DNA from: a virus
Strand: one strand, 5' to 3'
UHGV virus genome: UHGV-0036853
Length of the DNA: 64,000 nucleotides
Below are positions 5,240-64,000 of the stretch, piece after piece. Below the pieces are notes generated by a model, which had not been told where the DNA came from, did not search any database, and saw nothing but the letters and a program-made list of their open reading frames with translations. The position numbers and the translations under genes are program-made. Position 1 is the first letter of the stretch. Each line of letters begins with the position of its first letter.

Positions 5240-5572
5240 GTGAAAAAAGTATTAGGTGCTATTTTTGGTGGTTTGCTTCTTCTGCCAGTTGTAAGCAATG
5301 CAGCGGATGCACAAAAAGCCGTCGACAATAAAAAACCTGTTAACGCTTGGACCTGTGAAGATTTCTTGGCTGTGGACGAATCTTTCCAGCCTACAGTTGT
5401 AGGTTTTGCTGATGCTCTGAACAAGAAAGGCAAACCCGAAGATGCTGTTTTAGATATTCAGGGGGTTGCTACTGTAACTCCTGCGGTCATTCAGGCTTGC
5501 ACTCAGGATAAAAAAGCCAGCTTTAAAGATAAAGTTAAAGCCGAATGGGACAAAATTAAGAAAGATCTATAA
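5240..5572 (+). CDS. hdeA: periplasmic acid-stress chaperone HdeA
   Basis: 110 aa; signal peptide; near-colinear match to E. coli HdeA as I recall it (CEDFLAVDESFQP, VTPA..QACTQDK, EWDKIKKD), roughly 85 percent identical. Confidence 0.9.
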   Translation: MKKVLGAIFGGLLLLPVVSNAADAQKAVDNKKPVNAWTCEDFLAVDESFQPTVVGFADALNKKGKPEDAVLDIQGVATVTPAVIQACTQDKKASFKDKVKAEWDKIKKDL

Positions 5573-5990: not shown

Positions 5991-6017
5991 AAAACCCGCC
6001 AAATGGCGGGTTTTTTA
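5991..6017. terminator. bidirectional rho-independent terminator (hdeB on plus, dnaE-like on minus)
   Basis: Hairpin cccgccaaatggcggg flanked by an A-run and a T-run. Confidence 0.65.
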
Positions 6018-9000
6018 CTATGTCTTAATAGTTTCTGCTACGTCGGCTAATATCGCTTCTAGTCGTTCTCCCTCTTCAGGTCTGAAGTAAAGAATGTTGG
6101 GGTTAAACCCGTAAAAGACAGTAACGTCAAGGTCTGGAAGATACTCCTTCCTGCCGACTAAATCGGATGGCTTGTTTTTGTTGTTAAACATTGCCGTTGC
6201 CCGGCTGCCACACGTCAGCACATAGGTCGGACGCACCAGATTGATCTCTTCACGCATAAAGTCGGTGAACTGGCCGATCTCGTCTTTGGTGTAGTCCTTT
6301 TCTTTGTCTTTCACCTTTTTGCAAACGCCTGTGACATAGAGATCGCCCATGCGCAAATCCCCAGCCGTCAACAGCTTGGCCTTAAAATCGTCGTATCCGT
6401 TTTCCATAAAGTAACCGGTTCGAGCATCATTGCCGTTCGCATTGTCCAGAATGATCATGATTTTCGGCTTAATACCAATGCTGGGGCGGATTAGTTCATC
6501 ACCCAAGCCCATTTCAGCCGCCATCCGTGTCATGAGCACGTTAATCTCAGCCGAACGTTTGGGGTTCATCTCAAACGGACGTGAGGCTTTAACTGCATCT
6601 ATGACAAGGTTTCCCATCAATTCAGCCTGGTCGCGGAGGCGCTCTGGATCAGTTGCTGGCAGACTACCTGGCTCGATGGATGCAAACGCCCCTACTTTTT
6701 GCAGCGATTCGCGCACTCGACTATTACAGGCACGTTTCTCGACAGCTTCTTCGAATTGCGCAAGTGATTCGAATTTGCCGCCAACCTTTTCTCGCGCTCT
6801 CATGATGGCCAGGCAGCCATTCTCAGAACACCCTTTCACAGCAGAGAAGGGCGCATACAGCACCTGGCTACCATCTTCAAGCGTGCGGATCTCGATTCGG
6901 TTAGATGACACGTTAACGTCTGGTGGCAATACGCGAATACCATAGGTCAGCGCATCTTTAACCAGCCCCTGGTGTTTATCTTCGCCAAGAATAGTGAGAG
7001 CAGCAGCGAAAAACTCTGCGGGATAATGAGTTTTCAACCACATAGATTGATAACTGATTAAGGAGTAAGCAACAGAGTGTGATTTGTTGAACTGGTAGGC
7101 ACCATTCTTTTCGAATGCGGTCCAGATCTCCTTCGCTTTCATCTCTGATAGCCCTGGATGTGACGCTGTAACGCGTACTGCGTTTATAGGTAGTTTTGCG
7201 CCGTACTCAAGTGCCTCTTCGACAGTTTTCAGAGTTCCGTCTTCGCATTTAAAATGTTCCGCACGGTGAATGCGCTGTGTAGTGCCATCTTCCAGCTCAA
7301 CGTCTATCCAGCCAGCTTGAGCCTGAACGATGAACTTCTCGCCCATGCTCTTCATTTTTTCCATGTCTTTTTTGCCGATCGCTTTACGAACGCCGTCAGC
7401 TTCAGCCATTGTGAAGCCAGCAAGCAATCGAGTCGCGTTCATCGTCTGTTCCTGATAGAGAATCACGCCATTTGTTTCTGCGGTAAGTTCATCAAGAACG
7501 GGGTGTAATGATTCCGGCGTCATAAAGCCTTTGGCGACAGAAACATAATCATCCAACATGCCTGACTGAATTGGTCCCGGCCGGAAGAGCGCAGTCGTAG
7601 CAACGACCGTTTTAAAGCTCATTGGCTCAATTCCACCACCTAAATCTTTAAGCAGCTTGCGCATTGGGCCTGATTCAAGCTGGAAAACACCTTGAGTGTA
7701 CCCAGCAGCAAAACCATCCAGCACCTTGCGATCTTCAAGAGAAATGGCATCAAGATTGATATCTTCACCTCTGTTCTCTTTTATGTAGCGTTTTGCACTA
7801 TCGAGCAAATCGAGAGTTGCTAGGCCAAGCACGTCCAGCTTAATTAGGCCCATAGCCTCGCAGTAACGCTTGTCAAATGCGATACAACGCGCGTCACCAC
7901 GTCGTTCAACCGGTGTACGTTCTGTCAGAGGAACACCTGCTACGATCATCCCTGCCGCATGTCTACCAAAGCCACGCATAAGGCTTTGTAACTTGCAGGC
8001 TGCATTGAATGCATCAGGGTATTTTGTCGCGTATTTGTCGAGACTTGCCAGTTGTTCGCGCAGCTCCTCCAATGGAAGGCTATCATCCTCGACGTTCTTC
8101 AGTTCTTTTGATACCGCCATATCTGCGGACTCCACACCATAAATACGAGCGGTGTCACGTAGTGCAGAGGCCGCGCCCAGGTAGGTGAAGTTCGGAATGC
8201 CTGCAACGTAATCTTCGCCGTAGCGTTCATTCAGATACTCGATCACCTCATGGCGACGTGCCTGGCTGAAGTCCAAGTCCGCATCTGGCAAGTCGAGACG
8301 CTCAGGGTTGATGAAACGCTCAAACAGAAGACCGTGACGGATTGGGTCGACGTTGGTTATGCCTATGCACCACGCCACCAGAGAACCGGCAGAGGAACCA
8401 CGACCAGGCCCAACGGGAATGCCAGTTTCACGACTATGATTCATCAGATCGCGCACCATCAGGAAGTAACCACAGAATCCCAGGCGAGTAAGCGTGTCCA
8501 TTTCGTACTTTAGCCGCTCAACATAAACCCTGTTCTCAGAAGCTGGTGGTGTGTAGCCAAACTCTTTTGTGGTAAGACGTTTACGCAGCCCTGCAACAGC
8601 CAGTTTCATCAGCGTTGCAGGTTCGTCGTCTGCCATCTTGGGCAGTGCTGGTGGCAATTCATGCCAGCGCCATGTACAGGCTTCGATAATGGCGTCCTGC
8701 GTTGTTGAGGCCATTGCAGCTGTTACCGGCACATCCATGCGAACGGAGAAGGCTTTAAGCGCCTCAAGGAGATGGCGGCGACCATTGACGGCGTTATCTC
8801 GCTGGTGGGGGATACGCAGACGATGCGGCTGGTCGATTTTGATGTTGTTCGTAACCATGTGCGCAATGTCTTTAATGTCTGCATCGTCGATCGATTCGTA
8901 ATAAGCGGGATAAAACGCTACTGGCTCTATTTTCAGTGCGCTGGCGACTTTCATCGCCCGGAAGTTAATCTGGTCGTAGAATGGGGTAGGGTGCGGATAA

Positions 9001-26846: not shown

Positions 26847-26980
26847 TGGAGAGTTCCCTTTGCGTATATAATTATCGTCTGAAACAACTTGTTTTCTTAT
26901 ATGTGATATAGCCTAAATGCCTACGGCTGTGGTGTAAAGGTTTAATGATAGGTACATAGATTTGGTAAGGACTTAATAAC

Positions 26981-49318: not shown

Positions 49319-50209
49319 TTATGCCGGTAAAGCAATTTCTAACGGTTTATCCAAAGGTTGTTTGTCGAATGCCAGCAGTGGCAGCGTGTCAGGCAGTCGA
49401 CGGCCAAAGTCAGGGTTTCGGTACACACCATACAACGGAGACGTAAAGCTCAGGTTGTGAATGTCCTTGAGCAGCTTCACAATGCTGGCCTCGTCCACCA
49501 GACTGTCGGCAATGTCCTGAATCGTCGTGCCACGATTCCGCCCAGCTTTTGCCAGGGAACTGTTCTTGTGGTAGTCCGCCACCAGATCACGCAGTGCACG
49601 GCGACGACGAGACTCGCTCATTGCGAACAACTCTTTGACGATCGCCTCGTTATCACCCGGGTCAGAACGGAAATGGCGCTGGAATACACGCAGTGCACTT
49701 TCATAGCTCTTCGGTCGCTCAGGGCGGATGAACTTAAACCCTGCTTTCATGGCGAAGGGATTGTATTTGCTCATCGAGGACTGGATCTCAATGATTGGCC
49801 GGTCATGCATCCTGCTAACCAGGTTAATCATTCGATAAGAGACGCCTACGCCACGATACTGAGTATCCACAACTGAGCGACTGATCACCGCAAAGTTGTT
49901 ATTCACGTACCGACCCCAGTACTGGTTAGCCACGGTGGTATTAGTGGTTGGTTTCAACTTAGGAAACATGCGGTGGCGAGGTGCCAACAGTAGTTTCGGG
50001 TAAGCCATAACCACGACGCCCACCAGACGGTCATCAAGTTCGCAGCGATAGTAAGTTGGCGCGAAAGGTTTGCCGTCTGTTTTGTAGTGAAGCGACTTAA
50101 GAGCGTGCCAGTCCTCTACAGTTCCCTTTGTAACAGTCATTCGCTCCAGAAAGTCCAGATGACGCGGAAACTCTTCAGGGCGGTAGCGTTTAATGATGAT
50201 GTCCGTCAT
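49319..50209 (-). CDS. GNAT-like acetyltransferase-fold protein with C-terminal extension
   Basis: 296 aa; VGVVVMAY strand and motif-A-like RSVVDTQYRGVGVSYRMI; start overlaps upstream stop. Confidence 0.4.
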   Translation of the reverse strand: MTDIIIKRYRPEEFPRHLDFLERMTVTKGTVEDWHALKSLHYKTDGKPFAPTYYRCELDDRLVGVVVMAYPKLLLAPRHRMFPKLKPTTNTTVANQYWGRYVNNNFAVISRSVVDTQYRGVGVSYRMINLVSRMHDRPIIEIQSSMSKYNPFAMKAGFKFIRPERPKSYESALRVFQRHFRSDPGDNEAIVKELFAMSESRRRRALRDLVADYHKNSSLAKAGRNRGTTIQDIADSLVDEASIVKLLKDIHNLSFTSPLYGVYRNPDFGRRLPDTLPLLAFDKQPLDKPLEIALPA

Positions 50210-50871
50210 GAATGGACCTCATCGTGACTACCATTGTGATATTCCACCTTCACGCGTTCTTTGTAGTGCTTGGTGATCTGCATATCCGGGCGCAGCGCGT
50301 TCTTCAGGTCTTCGTGAGTCGTCGCCACCATTACCGTCGCACCAACCTTTCGAGCGGCACGCTGGAGGTTAGACGCCACAACCTGAGCGGTTACACGGTC
50401 GAGAACAGCGCCGAACTCGTCAGCAGCCCACACTTTAGCGCCTGACTCAATCAGTTTGGCAATCTTGAGACGATATTTCTGGCCGTCTGACATTTCAGAA
50501 GGCTTGCGAACAAACAGATATGCATCGTTCAGACCAGCCATAGATAACAACCCAAGCGCATCACTGGTCGTTTTGCCCAACTGATCGATGACGTTAACCT
50601 CATTATCGAAGGTAAAATCATCGATGGAGGCTACAGACAGCCCTTCATCCTTCATCTGTCGTTGCAACTCGCGCAGCACAACGGATTTGCCGGAACCGGA
50701 TTGGCCGGTGATGTACACCACATCGCCCTGCTTCACTTCCAGCTCCAGATTGTCGTAAAGCGTCCACTCTTTTTCGTCCAGGCCAAGCCCGAACGACTCA
50801 GCGATTTCCAACGTGCGCGTGGTTTTATTTACGCGTGTCTGAAACGATACGTTGATGATGTATTTGCTCAT
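50206..50871 (-). CDS. stand-alone ABC-type ATPase
   Basis: 221 aa; Walker A GQSGSGKS; signature-like SDGQKYRL; Walker B VWAADEF; H-loop TTHEDL. Confidence 0.65.
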   Translation of the reverse strand: MSKYIINVSFQTRVNKTTRTLEIAESFGLGLDEKEWTLYDNLELEVKQGDVVYITGQSGSGKSVVLRELQRQMKDEGLSVASIDDFTFDNEVNVIDQLGKTTSDALGLLSMAGLNDAYLFVRKPSEMSDGQKYRLKIAKLIESGAKVWAADEFGAVLDRVTAQVVASNLQRAARKVGATVMVATTHEDLKNALRPDMQITKHYKERVKVEYHNGSHDEVHS

Positions 50872-51536
50872 GCAGCCATCTCCCCGGAAGAGATCTTCTC
50901 CGCATATGCCACAAATGCGTCTACCCCGCTTTCTCCCGTCATTTCTTCCATGTGGGCAAGCAAATCACCAACAACAATGGCAGAGCCAGCAGGGAGCGTT
51001 TTAAAGCCCAATACGTCGACAACACGTACTTCTTCCGCTGCAACTTCACGACTGATCTCGGTGTGTTCATCCTTCTGTCGTTTAGTTTCTTCGCCAAGAT
51101 CGATAACTAGCGAGTCGGTGTCCATTTCTTCTGTCATACTGCCAACGAGAACATTCAACTCACGCTCTTCAAAGCCGAAAACCTCGATATCGTCCAGAAC
51201 AAGCGACTCAAGCTCTTTCTGTAGCTTAATTGCATCGTAATCAATGCTGGCAAGTCGGTTATCTTCAAGGCGCTTCGCACGAACCTCGTCATCACTGAGA
51301 TCATCGCGAACAATAACCGGTACGCGCTCAAGTCCAGCAAAAATTGCAGCCTCACGGCGGCCGTGGCCAGTAATAATTACGTCGTTCTTATCGACCGTAA
51401 TTGGCTGGTCAAATCCGCGCTTTTTAATGGCTGCGGCTAGATCTCGGATCTGCTGTTCATCATGCTTTTTGGCATTCATCTCATAGGGAATAAGATCTGC
51501 CGGGTCGCGATATACGATTTCAAACTTTTTGGTCAT
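50868..51536 (-). CDS. ParB/Srx-fold (ParB N-terminal domain) protein 2
   Basis: Motif ITGHGRREAAIFAGLERVPVIV; start set to the internal ATG that overlaps the upstream stop (track ORF extends to 51569). Confidence 0.6.
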   Translation of the reverse strand: MTKKFEIVYRDPADLIPYEMNAKKHDEQQIRDLAAAIKKRGFDQPITVDKNDVIITGHGRREAAIFAGLERVPVIVRDDLSDDEVRAKRLEDNRLASIDYDAIKLQKELESLVLDDIEVFGFEERELNVLVGSMTEEMDTDSLVIDLGEETKRQKDEHTEISREVAAEEVRVVDVLGFKTLPAGSAIVVGDLLAHMEEMTGESGVDAFVAYAEKISSGEMAA

Positions 51537-52234
51537 TACATACGCTCCTTGTAGTAGTCGACCAGCCACACCAGAGCCTCACCAGCGTTCTCCATTTCAT
51601 TACCGGTGTTAATAGCCTGTTCTTTGATGATGTTTTTTATGGTTTCTGCAACACGATCTGACGCATCGAAAGTTACTTTGAAGCGCATGGTCTGATGTTC
51701 CGCACCCACACGTTCGGTTTTCTCCCGTTTGTCGGTATCGACAGGCTCATCACTACCACGAGACAACGCCTCCAGTGCTTCAAGGTCGATTGCCGCCTCT
51801 TTTGCTAAAACCATCGAGATTTCGTCGTCATACGGGGCGATTTCAGACAGTTGATAGTCAAGTTCTGACTGAATTTCTTCAATGAAGCGTTGCAATGCGA
51901 TTTGGTCGTCTTCACCGTATCGCTCGTTGTCCACCAGTGACATCTGTTTAGCTACGACATCGCTAATTTTGCCCACAGAAAGCACTGGAACCGTTGAAAT
52001 TCCTTGCTCAATAGCGGCACGCCAGCGATGTTCACCGCCGAGGATTTCAAAAAATCCATCTTCAAGTTCACGAGCCAAAATTGGCTTAAAAAAGCCCAAT
52101 TTTTCGATAGAACCTTTCAGTTTTTCAAAATTCTGCGCACCAACCGAATTGGTGTTCCAGGTATTCGGGCGAAGGTTGGCAACATCAACCTGCAAAATCG
52201 TGATTTTTACATCCATTTTATTGCTACAATCCAC
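51536..52234 (-). CDS. ParB/Srx-fold (ParB N-terminal domain) protein 1
   Basis: 232 aa; motif ILGGEHRWRAAIEQGISTVPV. Confidence 0.6.
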   Translation of the reverse strand: MDCSNKMDVKITILQVDVANLRPNTWNTNSVGAQNFEKLKGSIEKLGFFKPILARELEDGFFEILGGEHRWRAAIEQGISTVPVLSVGKISDVVAKQMSLVDNERYGEDDQIALQRFIEEIQSELDYQLSEIAPYDDEISMVLAKEAAIDLEALEALSRGSDEPVDTDKREKTERVGAEHQTMRFKVTFDASDRVAETIKNIIKEQAINTGNEMENAGEALVWLVDYYKERM

Positions 52235-54963: not shown

Positions 54964-55383
54964 ATGAAAGTAACAAACCTAATTATTTTAACACTAGCCA
55001 CATCACTAATTGGGTGTTCATCTTCATCTATATCTGTTTCAAAGGCAAAGTATGCACCTCAAAGCAGAATATTTAAATATCAAACACCACATGAGTCTAG
55101 TCTAACAATAGTTAGAGACAAAGGGCTGGTTGGTTCTGGATGTAACGCTTCCATATTCATCAATGGAGAAACGGCAGCAAAATTGGAACCTGGTGAAAAA
55201 GCAACTTTCTATCTTAATGAAGGAGATTGGATCGTTGGGACATCAATTGAAAGTTCAGGTCTTTGCGCATTTAACCCCTCTAGGATGGAGCGAGAAATAA
55301 AACTAAAGCAAGGCGACGCGAAAACATATCGGGTTTTCACTACCTGGGATGGTACAATGGATATATTGCCAACCACTTTATAA
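54964..55383 (+). CDS. lipoprotein (AT-rich island)
   Basis: 139 aa; signal with lipobox LIGC. Confidence 0.55.
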   Translation: MKVTNLIILTLATSLIGCSSSSISVSKAKYAPQSRIFKYQTPHESSLTIVRDKGLVGSGCNASIFINGETAAKLEPGEKATFYLNEGDWIVGTSIESSGLCAFNPSRMEREIKLKQGDAKTYRVFTTWDGTMDILPTTL

Positions 55384-55387
55384 TGAT

Positions 55388-55912
55388 ATGACGACGAAAG
55401 ACATCACCTACGGTGTGCCAGCAGAAGTCTGGCCTCGAGATTACACTAACGTTGAAAAACTACTGATGTTCTGGCGCAGAGAACAAATTCCTGTAAGGGC
55501 CACTCTCGAAGATGGTCAGGCGTTTTGCATGTACGTTTATGGCCTCATGCCATCTCGTAACAAAGTTGACCTTTGCCCAGCCCCTTTTGACAAAGAAAAT
55601 CGTATAAGGCTCCCAATTGAACGCATTAGTACAATTGAATCAGGTGTGGTTGACAGTATCGCTCACGATTTCAAAGGTCGACTAACAGTTCACCCTGATT
55701 ATGTCGATAATCGGCCATCACGCCGCGATTTTTTTGCAATTTGCAACCAAGCCTACAAAGCAAACAAATCTATAAGGGTGTACATGGCGGATGGCCGTGA
55801 AATTGAGGGGGTGTCAGCAGGCGCAGATGCTTGTCAGGTTACACTACGTGTCGAGAACGGTAGAAAAATAGTTGTTTTGTTCGATTGGGTTGAACGAATT
55901 TTGCCTTTTTGA
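55388..55912 (+). CDS. hypothetical protein (AT-rich island)
   Basis: Start set to ATG at 55388 (MTTKD...) just after the upstream stop; track ORF begins at 55349. Confidence 0.5.
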   Translation: MTTKDITYGVPAEVWPRDYTNVEKLLMFWRREQIPVRATLEDGQAFCMYVYGLMPSRNKVDLCPAPFDKENRIRLPIERISTIESGVVDSIAHDFKGRLTVHPDYVDNRPSRRDFFAICNQAYKANKSIRVYMADGREIEGVSAGADACQVTLRVENGRKIVVLFDWVERILPF

Positions 55913-57662: not shown

Positions 57663-57667
57663 AATCG

Positions 57668-57694
57668 AGCGCCCACTATGGGCGCTTTTTTCGT
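57668..57694 (+). terminator. rho-independent terminator (same hairpin repeated at 57171-57189)
   Basis: agcgcccactatgggcgct followed by ttttttcg. Confidence 0.7.
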
Positions 57695-58150
57695 TTCCAA
57701 TACTTCCACCATAACGCGCCATCATTGGCGCGTTTTTTATTGTCTTTGACTCACTCCAACAACATAAAAATAAGCGCCAAAATAACGCCATAGACGCGCT
57801 TTTATATCCTTGCCAGTACATACCCATTACTTAACGCATTAACGCGCTTAAAACGCGTTATATTGCGCTATAACGTATGGCTAATCATTAATTTTTATTC
57901 TTGCTATGTGATCCGCGTTTATTTGTCGGCGCGGATCGGCATTTTGTGTTGTTCTGTGTCCGCTCGCGTATTATGTGCGCGTGATTTTTCACATAATCAC
58001 ACCACTTAATCACGTATGTGATTACGCTACGAAAGAAATCTGGATGTCTCAGGCGACGAAAGTCATCATGATTTTCCCCGCTCGCCTGTCCGACAACCGC
58101 TGGTTGGATTCCACCAGCTTCCCGATGTTTTTTCTACATAAAGGCGAATG

Positions 58151-58266
58151 CAGCCGTTTCCCGAAAAAATCCTGGCCGTTTCCCGTCGGCTCATGAATAC
58201 GTTCCTCGCCGTTTCTGAAAATTTCCCTGCGGCAGCTGGTGGCTATAGAGAAAGGGCCGTTTCTGG
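58151..58266. repeat. iteron-like direct repeats GCCGTTTC(C/T), four copies
   Basis: cagccgtttcccg (58151), tggccgtttcccg (58173), cgccgtttctg (58207), gggccgtttctgg (58254). Confidence 0.5.
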
Positions 58267-58278
58267 CCCTCTTCTCAG

Positions 58279-61062: not shown

Positions 61063-61392
61063 TTACTCGAATACTTCAAGAAACTCCTGAACATCCCAAT
61101 GCTGGACAAGGTGAAGATAGACCTTAGAAATCACGTCATTCTCGCTATCGCATGTGAAGTAGTACTTCTGGCTGCGGTTGTATGTGTCCACACAAAATTC
61201 GCTCATATCCATAAAGTCAGCATCTTCACCCATGTCGCAAATCATCAAAGCAGGTGCATCATCACGAGTCATCAGCTCAAGCACCCACCGCGAATTGATC
61301 AGAGTGGAAGACCAACCTTCTAACTCATAAAACTGATCAAACTCTTTTTGAGTCAATTTCTTGATTTGGTTGATGTCGATATGTGCAAACAT
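61063..61392 (-). CDS. hypothetical acidic small protein
   Basis: Start set to MFAHIDIN... with RBS AAGGA; class II motif at 61411-61445. Confidence 0.45.
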   Translation of the reverse strand: MFAHIDINQIKKLTQKEFDQFYELEGWSSTLINSRWVLELMTRDDAPALMICDMGEDADFMDMSEFCVDTYNRSQKYYFTCDSENDVISKVYLHLVQHWDVQEFLEVFE

Positions 61393-61780
61393 AAAGCAAT
61401 CCTTAAACAACATGTTTTCTTATTGGTGTTATTATCGCAATAACACACAGGCGAAAAAGGATTTTATTCCGGTGAATGTGGTTTTGGCAGTGAGTTTTCA
61501 GGTTCAGTACCGAGTACAATTTTTACATTATTCTGATTTAGTGGCCGAAGATGGCTGGTGGGCAGAATAATCCTCTCCCCGAAAACCTACTGAAATCGAT
61601 TGTGACCCGCTGGCTGTCTGGCACAATTACGCTGTAGCTGGGCATTCAGAGGGAATCCAGCGGTAAGTAAGTCCGCCTGCACGTGAGCGTCTCTCTCCTT
61701 CCCGCACATTACAGGTGGGCAGCCGCAACTCTCCCTCACGCTATACCGGTACGCCACCGTTCCTGAACCGGCATCGAACC

Positions 61781-61900
61781 TTTTCCCGAAATCCACACAG
61801 GCAACTCGACCGTTTCCCTGAAAACCTCCAGCCGTTCCCCGAAGGCAACCCAGCCGTTTCTGTAGCGGGATGCAGCCTTTTCCCTGTATGGACCGAAGGC
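61781..61900. repeat. degenerate ~22-bp tandem repeats CC(G/T)TTTCCC(T)GAA, about six copies
   Basis: ccttttcccgaaa, ccgtttccctgaaaa, ccgttccccgaagg, ccgtttctgtagcg, ccttttccctgtatg read directly. Confidence 0.5.
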
Positions 61901-62965
61901 TGACCGTAGGGGTGTTACGGGGGATAAAATCAGGAGTTGAATAAATACGAAAAAGGAGGCGACACCCCTCCTTCCCTCCCCACTTATACATACCTGGCTT
62001 CTTCGCTATACATGTTGTGTTTTATTCGTGTTTTATCTGTCTCAACCTCTCTATAGGCGTTAATGCTCACTCCTTCCAGAGCGTTCTATACGGCGACTAT
62101 TCCTGTTGGTGAATTGGGTGTGTTGTTCTCTCTGTCGGTGTAAATGGTTTCGTTCGTTTTGCGGTGGTTCTTCTGTGGGGGTGTTCTCGTCGTTTTGGTG
62201 ATTGTTCTTCTCCGTGTATGGAGTAATGGCAGGTGGGCGATTCCTTTCGTTATTGTGTTTGAGTTGTTTGTCTGGAGTGCGTGAAGGGCTTTTGTAGTTA
62301 TTCGTGTATTGGGTAATGGCGTTTCCCGTGATTGTTATGTTTCGTGTCTTTTGGGATTGAGAGAATCCTTGCGGTTACAGGCTTCGTTGGGTTTTCAGTG
62401 ATTCTGGTGTTCTTCGCTGTTTGGGGAATGGCGTGTCGTGGGTATCGCGCGTGTGAATGTTTTCGGATTGCCTGTGAAAGTTAGGTTGGTTGTCCGGTAG
62501 CCTGGGAAGAAGAGGTGGGTCTTTTCGGTGGCCTGCCATAAAGAGGTTGGTTGTTTTTGGGAATGGCATGTGTGTTATTTAGTTGTTTTGTTATGCCTGA
62601 AAATAAGTTGTTTATATGGTTGTGTAACGCAACGGGAGCGATTTTGAGCGTGTGTTTTTGTTGGTAGTGTGTTGAGTTGTCTGTGGTGAAAATTGGACGC
62701 TGTGGAGCTGTCTGCTGCGTAGGATTACGGGTATAAGAAGTGATGTGTGAAAACGTCAATTTTTTAGACCAAATCGGGTGAAAGCGTTGACGTTTCGTTG
62801 ATCTGTTATTCAGTTGTTTTCTTGTTTGTATAAACAACTATAACCTATTGATATTTAAGGATGTGATTGCAGGCATGGAAGGGGAGTAGTGGCGATCAAC
62901 GGATTCTTATAGAAAAGAATCAAATTGTGACCGCCATTATCAACGGTTTGAATATGTTTTCAGAT

Positions 62966-63425: not shown

Positions 63426-64000
63426 TTACTTAACCTGGTGGCCTGGTTTAGCGCCAGCATCCGGGCTTAACAGGAAGATATCTTTCCCGCCAGGGCCAGC
63501 AGCCATCACCATGCCTTCGGAGATACCGAAGCGCATTTTACGCGGAGCCAGGTTAGCCACCATAATGGTGTGACGACCAATCAGTGCCTGTGGGTCTGGA
63601 TAAGCAGAACGGATGCCTGAGAAGACATTGCGTTTTTCACCACCGAGATCCAGTGTCAGACGCAACAGTTTGTCAGAACCTTCAACAAACTCCGCGTTTT
63701 CAATCAGCGCCACACGCAGGTCAACTTTGGCGAAGTCGTCAAAGGTGATGGTTTCCTGAATCGGGTCGTCAGCCAGTGGGCCAGTTACCGGTGCGGCTGT
63801 GGCTTTCACTTCTTCTTTGGATGCTTCCACCAGTGCTTCCACCTGTTTCATATCGATACGGTTATACAGTGCTTTGAACGGATTCACTTTATGGCTCAAC
63901 AGCGGTTGCTGAATACCATCCCAGGTCAGTTCTGTATTCAGGAATGCTTCTGCACGTTCAGTCAGTTTCGGCAGTACCGGTTTCAGGTAAGTCATCAGCA
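63426..64000 (-). CDS. metG: methionyl-tRNA synthetase, C-terminal portion (gene continues beyond the right edge)
   Basis: Translation ...[122 protein letters not shown] matches the E. coli MetG C-terminus as recalled. Confidence 0.85.

Follow-up and report, generated by a model that had tools for sequence, protein, structure and literature searches.

We analysed a 64,000-nucleotide stretch (the window) of the virus genome UHGV-0036853, an SSU5/pHCM2-type phage-plasmid of Escherichia coli, and focused on the interval 61393–62965 near its right-hand end, the largest gene-free stretch noticed in the annotation of the element. Together with an array of direct repeats (iterons) at 58154–58264, this interval is best explained as a non-coding module that acts in cis to control the phage backbone of the SSU5 supergroup and belongs to that backbone, a module without any description that we found in the searchable literature. 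The element carries genes for phage structural proteins, a tRNA cluster, DnaE, a DnaB-like helicase, a primase, RecA, a ligase, RNase H and NrdAB, with a 5′–3′ exonuclease also among its own replisome genes, and it encodes a RepB-family plasmid initiator (RepA). Matches to the region and its flanks comprise 243 E. coli plasmids, 218 of them at 90–99% identity, and no chromosomes; the match to phage Cyrano (pLF82) is 96.5%, and Salmonella phage SSU5 and Klebsiella SSU5-like phages are 68–72% identical. The end of the window looks chromosomal because of the cargo found there: its last 570 bases encode the C terminus of MetG, and full-length metG (methionyl-tRNA synthetase) and apbC/mrp are carried at 63426–64000 and beyond in this lineage of phage-plasmids. 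A chromosomal island beside metG was ruled out, as metG and apbC are annotated as cargo adjoining the region in plasmid p009_B and Cyrano and as the region with its flanks had no chromosomal match.

The first-pass annotation, made from the letters alone, had described the region as lacking a credible open reading frame (ORF) and as something other than coding DNA, and both statements stand. RefSeq annotation by the Prokaryotic Genome Annotation Pipeline (PGAP) places no gene over the homologous 1.55 kb of p009_B, between the genes ending at 61392 and 62966. Long open frames are confined to the T-poor minus strand, where their extent and frame vary among lineages. In pairwise lineage comparisons, between two of three and 11 of 15 indels in 62000–62840 are not multiples of three, so neither a conserved frame nor indels by threes, as in a coding gene, were seen. 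The depositors of Cyrano annotated two coding sequences here, CYRAN_103 and CYRAN_104, and minus-strand frames of 96–262 codons are open in most lineages, but these frames are unconserved, are broken by indels and have low-complexity translations. In strand-specific RNA sequencing (RNA-seq) of the LF82 lysogen, CYRAN_103 (minus strand, 62481–62837) had 0 fragments per kilobase per million reads (FPKM) in LB, and CYRAN_104 (61587–61991) had 12 and 6.5 FPKM, with low values in other conditions.

A structured non-coding RNA, which the same annotation had offered as one possibility, fared no better. A search of Rfam gave no family at its gathering score, the single hit at E ≤ 5 being a chance match (19.8 bits against a threshold of 40.2). 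Folding z-scores of −0.36 (plus strand) and −1.76 (minus strand) showed no surplus folding energy, and an alifold scan of 62030–62470 on both strands found no conserved structure, no better than shuffled columns, with a minus-strand consensus fold energy of about 0. A hidden protein-coding gene or structured RNA is thus effectively refuted. On the minus strand, the region is not an abundant transcript of the lysogen: the upstream minus-strand cargo gene had 57 FPKM in LF82 and the next ‘gene’, 111 bp on, had 0 FPKM, and the operon of small genes to the left was induced from its own promoter while the region upstream of it was silent.

The left half of the region contains the main iteron array (Table 1). 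About six repeats of about 22 bp had been noted at 61781–61900; these are real, and a first copy lies outside that range. Matches to CC[GT]TT[TC]C[CT] begin on the plus strand at 61757, 61779, 61810, 61832, 61854 and 61876 (spanning 61757–61883), giving CCGTTTCCC-like copies at spacings of 22, 31, 22, 22 and 22 bp. The periodicity is evident on computation, with self-match peaks at lags 22 and 44 of 0.43 over a background of about 0.25. The cluster of six copies compares with a maximum of two in 500 Markov copies of the window and in 5,000 sequences of matched local composition. Tandem Repeats Finder reported nothing in the region because the repeats are too degenerate for it, only about 10–12 of each 22 bp recurring. 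The array nonetheless has the anatomy of iteron origins, in which at least three direct repeats of about 17–22 bp are helically phased. The same spacing is found in pHCM2, SSU5, Citrobacter, E. fergusonii and another E. coli lineage, and the Klebsiella and Enterobacter examples retain three to four motif matches.

A second array, overlooked in the first-pass annotation and oriented like the main one, sits 3.6 kb further left; it was found in nearly all relatives, in Yersinia pestis plasmid pMT1 and in a distant family described below. An unbiased scan of the whole 110-kb plasmid found non-coding iteron arrays only at RepA and here. The second array closes another gene-free region, 57663–58278, at a junction of convergent genes; two intrinsic terminators and TAACGCG-type repeats precede the array, and a GATCCGCG…CGCGGATC palindrome, four AATCAC/GTGATT boxes and one DnaA-box match (57985) also lie there. 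This region, too, is kept in pMT1 and the distant family.

To the right of the main array, the sequence becomes strongly G+T-rich on the plus strand, as had been noticed: the maximum over 400 nucleotides is 0.755 at 62101 (62101–62500), whereas the window has a mean G+T content of 0.506 (standard deviation 0.037). The C/G ratio of the minus strand is 2–7 over most of about 800 nucleotides; the window as a whole has a median of 0.9, with the 99th percentile at 3.1. Within this body, the units beginning GG(A/G)GTAATGGC that had been noted were recovered at 62220, 62310, 62423 and 62558, and in pHCM2 the homologous GTAATGG[CT] occurs six times where 0.06 occurrences are expected from composition. 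Eight lineages keep a body of 743–778 bp with G at about 0.30 and T at 0.35–0.40. Exchanges between G and T make up 25% of the differences in the body and 10% of those in the iteron zone, so that substitutions preserve the composition. Helical phasing of T-tracts, as in DNA bending, was weak or absent. Proteins that bind duplex DNA need no one-sided composition over 0.8 kb; the asymmetry therefore implies action on single-stranded DNA or RNA, which is the only general inference that it permits.

We measured conservation in 35 non-redundant relatives (less than 97% mutual identity, 59–97% identity to the window). In these, the region is 1481–1572 bp long, or about 1750 bp with an inserted small ORF. 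The insertion, of about 240 bp, is in the left part (equivalent to about 61465–61570 of the window) of the Enterobacter, pHCM2 and SSU5 examples (L012, L008 and L014) and carries a plus-strand ORF of 80–85 amino acids (MSTKDYTDGYFSIDAERGELLHGG…), annotated as a hypothetical protein. Column conservation in the body is 0.63–0.94 from 62080 on, equal to or above that of the iterons, and 62000–62079 is poorly conserved (0.29–0.58). The layout recurs in eight representative lineages (E. coli, E. fergusonii, Citrobacter, Enterobacter, pHCM2, SSU5 and Klebsiella) and in nearly all of the 77 IMG/VR loci that reach far enough: the second array by the gene for a 160-amino-acid protein, the main array 1.5–4.5 kb away and the G+T-rich peak about 300 bp further on.

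The module is also present in a distant family, represented by K. pneumoniae AR_0097 plasmid unnamed2 (rep_cluster_2469), whose anchor protein is only about 32% identical and whose replicon type is different. The synteny is the same there, with a gene-free gap of 1.5 kb. A near-identical promoter and operator are followed by CCGTTTCCCGA iterons, which occur in both arrays, by a CTTGAATTTCTACGAAAA block and by about 0.8 kb at a G+T content of 0.66–0.70 with GRTGATGGCAGGTA and GTTCTTCTC units. Further right, TTAAACAAATTGTTAT takes the place of the mid-body operator, TTGACA-17-TTACAC and TTGACGTTACGTTGATCTG occupy the equivalent of 62731–62801, and the boundary element keeps GATCAAC…CTTATAGAAA, its inner stem having changed to CAACCTCT/AGAGGTTG with pairing kept. 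A scan of reference genomes for remoter relatives returned only six loci, all from known groups, and the phage collection gave only SSU5-type records.

Table 1 Features of the gene-free region and of the second iteron array
Feature	Position	Strand	Description
Second iteron array	58154–58264	+	Four copies (58154, 58176, 58209, 58257); just beyond the 3′ end of the gene for the 160-amino-acid protein; Chi at 58235
Repressor-type promoter and leader of the leftward operon (six small genes)	61403–61457	−	−35-like TTTTCG/GCC; extended −10 TGCGATAAT
Chi octamer and solitary iteron-like copy	61554–61587	+	Chi GCTGGTGG at 61554–61561; CCTCTCCCCGAAAACC at 61572–61587
Variable spacer	61590–61750		Column conservation 0.51–0.77; least conserved part of the left half; small ORF inserted in some lineages
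Main iteron array	61757–61897	+	Six direct repeats, consensus cAGCCGTTTCCCTGAA
Conserved block	61900–61995		GTTACGGGGGAT, CTTGAAT and CCCCTCCTTCCCTCCCCACTTATAC; conservation 0.79–0.88
G+T-rich body	62000–62840	+	G 0.303, T 0.398, A 0.161, C 0.138; minus strand C+A-rich, G-poor
Repeat unit 1	62195–62235	+	GTTCTTCTCCGTGTATGGAGTAATGGC; best-conserved stretch of the body, 0.91–0.94
Further AATGGC units	62285–62325, 62397–62437, 62555–62571	+	
Two tandem 31-bp repeats	62495–62556	+	CGGTAGCCTGGG..AAGAGGTGGGTCTTTT; conservation 0.91
Isolated operator-like palindrome	62599–62614		GAAAATAAGTTGTTTA; in other lineages GAAAACAACTTGTTTA, the family consensus
Conserved block with inverted TTGACG boxes	62731–62801		Conservation 0.83–0.94; CGTTGACGTTTCGTTGATC on the plus strand at 62784–62801
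Degenerate promoter/leader copy	62806–62845	−	…AAACAAGAAAACAACTGAAT; no ORF behind it; leader half conserved, −10 half lineage-variable
Palindromic boundary element	62889–62949		Outer arms TGGCGATCA (62890–62898) and TGACCGCCA (62928–62936)

The operon promoter at the left edge is near-invariant (0.89–0.99 in the 35 relatives) and is kept in the distant family; its −10 reads ATTATC on the plus strand at 61431–61436, and an operator palindrome, AAACA-n-TGTTT, lies at 61404–61419. Near-identical minus-strand promoter/leader units are dispersed in the window at 26890, 58790, 59275, 61413 and 63287, with a degenerate copy at 62815, and occur in p009_B at 5303, 90300 and 91014. They share the form (TG)CGATAAT-ACACCAA-AAGAAAACAA-n-TTGTTT, in which the palindromic operator AAACAA-n-TTGTTT follows just downstream of the −10. 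Judged by sequence, the units look like the operators of one master repressor, probably the helix-turn-helix protein CYRAN_45 of Cyrano, and they resemble the scattered C1 operators of P1. At the other end of the region, the minus strand carries a candidate leftward promoter, TTGACG (62759–62754) and TTATAC (62736–62731) separated by 17 nucleotides, which fails a consensus scan because its −10 is without the final T. In the block at 61900–61995, the minus strand has a G-rich run and, after it, a hairpin with a T-run (61976–61949) that our scan picked out as terminator-like; this hairpin is only partly conserved in other lineages. The boundary element contains an inner hairpin, GATTCTT..AAGAATC, and two ATCAACGG boxes. 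Lineage homology stops just to its right, where variable cargo starts. In one E. coli plasmid (NZ_CP083480.1, hit H11), an IS1 insertion lies within the region or at its edge, so at least one position tolerates disruption.

The first-pass annotation had also suggested an origin of replication. As the origin of the plasmid prophage, the region can be excluded. The RepA origin has P1-like iterons, TATGCTGyCAGCGGT, about five upstream and about twelve downstream of repA, and a GATC-rich stretch; it lies about 33 kb away, and its iterons have no similarity to CCGTTTCCC. The RepA origin (IncFIB-pHCM2, P1-like) is, like the module, an iteron-bearing non-coding locus on the same replicon. Moreover, Y. 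pestis maintains pMT1 although the main region is missing there, lost at an IS1541 junction that leaves the 160-amino-acid gene and the second array in place; the main region is therefore not the maintenance origin.

What survives of the suggestion is a second origin. Our leading idea, which we put forward tentatively as possible rather than probable, is that the module serves the lytic cycle as a second origin or control region under repressor control, its asymmetric body acting as single-stranded nucleic acid. We arrive at it because non-coding iteron arrays occur only at RepA and here, because the region travels with the phage backbone and is kept even in the distant family, because the element has its own replisome and so presumably needs a phage-mode origin, because the region is dispensable in plasmid life, and because its minus strand is silent and it has repressor-type operators. 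A lytic function would be expected to show just such silence of the minus strand in the lysogen, with operators inside the region and next to it. In the lysogen, the master repressor would sit on the AAACAA-n-TTGTTT operators in and beside the region, and transcription would be silent. On induction or infection, a putative DNA-binding protein encoded by the element would fill the six phased CCGTTTCCC iterons and may bring the main array together with the second one across the intervening 3.6 kb, a pairing like that of ori and crr in P4 or of oriL and oriR in SPP1. The body would then act as single-stranded nucleic acid. In one version, it would be a structure-free zone for unwinding or priming, the G+T strand templating a leftward leading strand co-directional with nearly all genes; in the other, the leftward TTGACG-17-TTATAC promoter would use it as the template for an activating transcript that is C+A-rich and unstructured. 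Our results show the anatomy of the module, its deep conservation and non-coding nature, its separateness from the RepA origin, the silence of its minus strand in the lysogen and its dispensability for plasmid maintenance; the mechanism, replication function included, is inferred from these features and from one public transcriptome.

Known replicons offer partial parallels. P4 ori/crr, SPP1 oriL/oriR and P1 oriR/incA are iteron-type phage origins with a distant second array. Like them, the module has short direct repeats phased at about two helical turns and a second array in the same orientation a few kilobases off, and it is a non-coding cis locus of a temperate element; unlike them, it has no recognizable adjacent initiator gene, no AT-rich unwinding element and no DnaA boxes, and attached to it is a conserved asymmetric body of 0.8 kb, which is not known from those origins. 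The lytic replicon of P1, which runs from operator Op53 through promoter P53 to oriL, likewise has dispersed operators of one repressor and a repressor-controlled promoter that reads toward the putative origin. In P1, however, oriL is inside repL, whereas here only a C+A-rich spacer separates promoter and iterons. The mitochondrial control region (displacement loop, D-loop) and immunoglobulin switch regions are non-coding and strand-asymmetric over about a kilobase, contain conserved blocks or degenerate repeats and are linked to origins or to R-loops and D-loops. The module resembles them in size, asymmetry and repeats, but its only candidate promoters would give C+A-rich rather than G-rich RNA, and a displaced strand or R-loop here is conjectural.

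Several observations weigh against a lytic origin. Between 57400 and 63000, no 100-bp window reaches 68% A+T, as an AT-rich unwinding element would, and there is no cluster of DnaA boxes, only the single box at 57985. Matches to the integration host factor (IHF) consensus occur only at 61358, 62845 and 62938, so that the usual combination of an AT-rich element with host-factor sites is missing. The helicase and primase genes are about 35 kb from the region, and no recognizable initiator gene adjoins it; the neighbouring small proteins have no match in Pfam, NCBIfam or the PDB and fall into PHROGs of unknown function. Cumulative skew has no origin-type switch here, but it is monotonic round the whole circle, which makes skew-based origin mapping uninformative. 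To our knowledge, an asymmetric flank of 0.8 kb has no precedent at characterized iteron origins, and no experiment or paper on the region was found in the searchable literature. Finally, iterons flanking a repressor-controlled operon suit a purely regulatory reading equally well.

One such regulatory reading, which we consider somewhat unlikely, is a transcription insulator combined with a regulatory hub. The minus strand would be a giant, rut-like Rho-loading zone, poor in start codons and untranslatable, that with the help of the boundary hairpin keeps leftward transcription of the cargo from running on into the early operon, and the arrays would bind a regulator that brackets, and perhaps loops or silences, the operon. 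The position of the region fits well, exactly at the border of variable cargo and conserved operon, with nearly all cargo-side genes in the lineage of the window reading leftward toward it and with the arrays flanking an operon that holds three operator-type promoters. The minus strand also supplies what a rut site requires, at least 80 nucleotides of C-rich, G-poor, unstructured and untranslated RNA in the sense of the surrounding transcription: its C/G ratio exceeds 2 over most of about 800 nucleotides and its consensus fold energy is about 0. In LF82, expression falls from 57 FPKM in the upstream gene to 0 in the next 357 nucleotides, and the operon fires from its own promoter. Yet read-through appears to end within 111 bp, at the boundary element and before the C+A-rich body, so that 0.8 kb of rut would be redundant. 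The body is also about ten times longer than a typical rut region, and its primary sequence and internal repeats are conserved. A purely compositional device leaves this conservation (0.63–0.94 from 62080) and the 28-nucleotide units shared across families unexplained, and in the Klebsiella lineage examined the adjacent cargo lies on the other strand.

Two further readings start, like the lytic origin, from the single-strand argument. It is unlikely, in our judgement, that the body is a single-strand-acting element of a new kind coupled to the iterons, either as a persistently displaced G+T strand in D-loop- or R-loop-type origin control or as a structure-free, C+A-rich early RNA whose four to six repeated protein-binding units titrate Hfq, S1 or an FljA-like protein at the lytic switch. 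Were this reading true, a single-strand-acting body would be conserved throughout the clinically widespread SSU5 supergroup. The single-strand initiation (ssi) region that the first-pass annotation had mentioned would agree with the asymmetry over 0.8 kb; known ssi signals, however, are short hairpins, and the body does not fit the pattern of ssi or primosome signals, about 70–300 nucleotides of single-stranded DNA with defined hairpins, as neither strand folds better than its shuffles and the C+A strand is essentially free of structure. We regard as quite unlikely an unstructured, C+A-rich early lytic RNA of about 0.75 kb, reading leftward from about 62730 to the hairpin at about 61950, that would sequester an RNA-binding factor as a sponge or decoy, such as Hfq, ribosomal protein S1 or the FljA-like protein (Sm-like at its C terminus), or would pair with G+U-rich host RNAs. 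Strand asymmetry implies selection on one strand, conserved promoter-like boxes and operators lie upstream, a terminator-like hairpin lies downstream in this lineage, and proteins could bind the repeated units as RNA motifs; 6 kb away lies a Flag1_repress (FljA-like) gene, whose product has a weak Hfq-like match, and silence in the lysogen is compatible with repressor control. Against these points, no transcript was observed in the lysogen RNA-seq, which covers the minus strand, the −10 is without its key final T, and the terminator hairpin is poorly conserved, with neither an Rfam family nor covariation. The iterons could instead be centromere-like sites at which a partition or ParB-family protein encoded by the element acts in segregation or long-range silencing, a reading that is distinctly improbable. 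Each repeat contains an imperfect palindrome, GTTTCCC(T)GAAAA, which resembles half-sites of parS (GTTTCAC) and the Noc site (ATTTCCC), and two ParB-N proteins are encoded 10 kb away, one of which is 69% identical between families and among the best conserved, paralleling the iteron core. However, both have acidic C-terminal halves and no recognizable helix-turn-helix, the AlphaFold model is unusable (predicted local distance difference test score, pLDDT, 38.7), the ParA-type ATPase, at a distance of 35 kb, has an upstream region of its own, inheritance of pMT1 is stable despite the loss of the main array and the asymmetric body would be unexplained. Highly improbable, lastly, is a site of packaging initiation (pac/cos) or a recombination hot spot at the cargo boundary, in which the iterons would be small-terminase sites or the G+T strand a RecA-preferred 3′ tail for cyclization or recombination-dependent replication. 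The iteron core CGTTTCC is identical to the core of the R sites in lambda cosB, the Chi sites at 61554, 59420 and 58235 lie just to the left, all in the correct orientation, a RecA homologue is encoded and the cargo junction is at the right edge; in addition, the right-hand 450 bp occur alone in large Klebsiella plasmids, joined to the same DUF262/type I restriction–modification (R–M) cargo. But a distance of 14 kb separates the region from the terminase genes, next to which the SSU5 record begins, and the small terminase has no match to the Nu1 family, so that a lambda-Nu1-type binder of the iterons was rejected.

E. coli, Klebsiella, Salmonella and Enterobacter commonly harbour phage-plasmids of the SSU5/pHCM2/pKpn type. 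The region has matches in 839 PLSDB plasmids, and SSU5-type elements carry resistance genes such as dfrA51. The module is kept across the supergroup at the border of cargo-gene exchange. If it is a lytic origin or control region, it would offer a handle on bursts in copy number, on the induction and transduction of resistance genes and on engineering of the elements; a body that works as single-stranded DNA or as unstructured RNA would make it a cis element of a new type.

Three resemblances were considered and dropped. The CGGTAGCCTG motif of the 31-bp repeats is like the RfaH ops element, but the distant family has GTGTGCCTG instead. The likeness of ACCCAATAC in some units to the fliC leader was judged to be chance because the core common to both families, GCCATYNCYC, is absent from it. 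A likeness to F/R388-type nic sites was discarded, as the motif occurs in multiple copies and genes for a relaxase or HUH protein are absent.

Chi is not enriched in the window as a whole, with nine sites on each strand. The sites at 58235, 59420 and 61554 are three of the nine plus-strand sites, fall within 3.4 kb directly to the left of the G+T-rich body and are all oriented to stop RecBCD arriving from the right. Four of the eight aligned representative lineages have the Chi at 61554 unchanged and a fifth has it with one mismatch; the other three lack it. Large Klebsiella IncF plasmids (190–450 kb) hold only the right-hand 450 bp or so of the region, at 6001–6457 in NZ_CP102988.1 (L006) and 6001–6352 in NZ_CP102105.1 (L007). 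In the former, this piece is fused to the same DUF262 and type I R–M cargo as in the Klebsiella phage-plasmid pSC7 (L013), an arrangement which suggests that recombination within the body may have moved cargo into other plasmids.

Elsewhere in the window, four tRNA genes (Ser-TGA, Thr-TGT, Tyr-GTA and Asn-GTT) are clustered at 16923–17924 on the minus strand. At 49319–52234, also on the minus strand and directly upstream of the terminase genes, are the two ParB-N-domain proteins, which have a GERRxRA-like motif and acidic C-terminal halves, and two ABC-type ATPases; a comparison of the E. coli and Klebsiella lineages gives 86% identity for one of the ParB-N proteins, and the neighbouring genes are far less conserved. 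A homologue of FljA, which represses phase-1 flagellin, is encoded at 55349–55912 on the plus strand (Pfam Flag1_repress, E = 1e-83), with a weak Hfq/Sm-like match at its C terminus that makes an RNA-binding regulator possible, and this gene is kept in all lineages.

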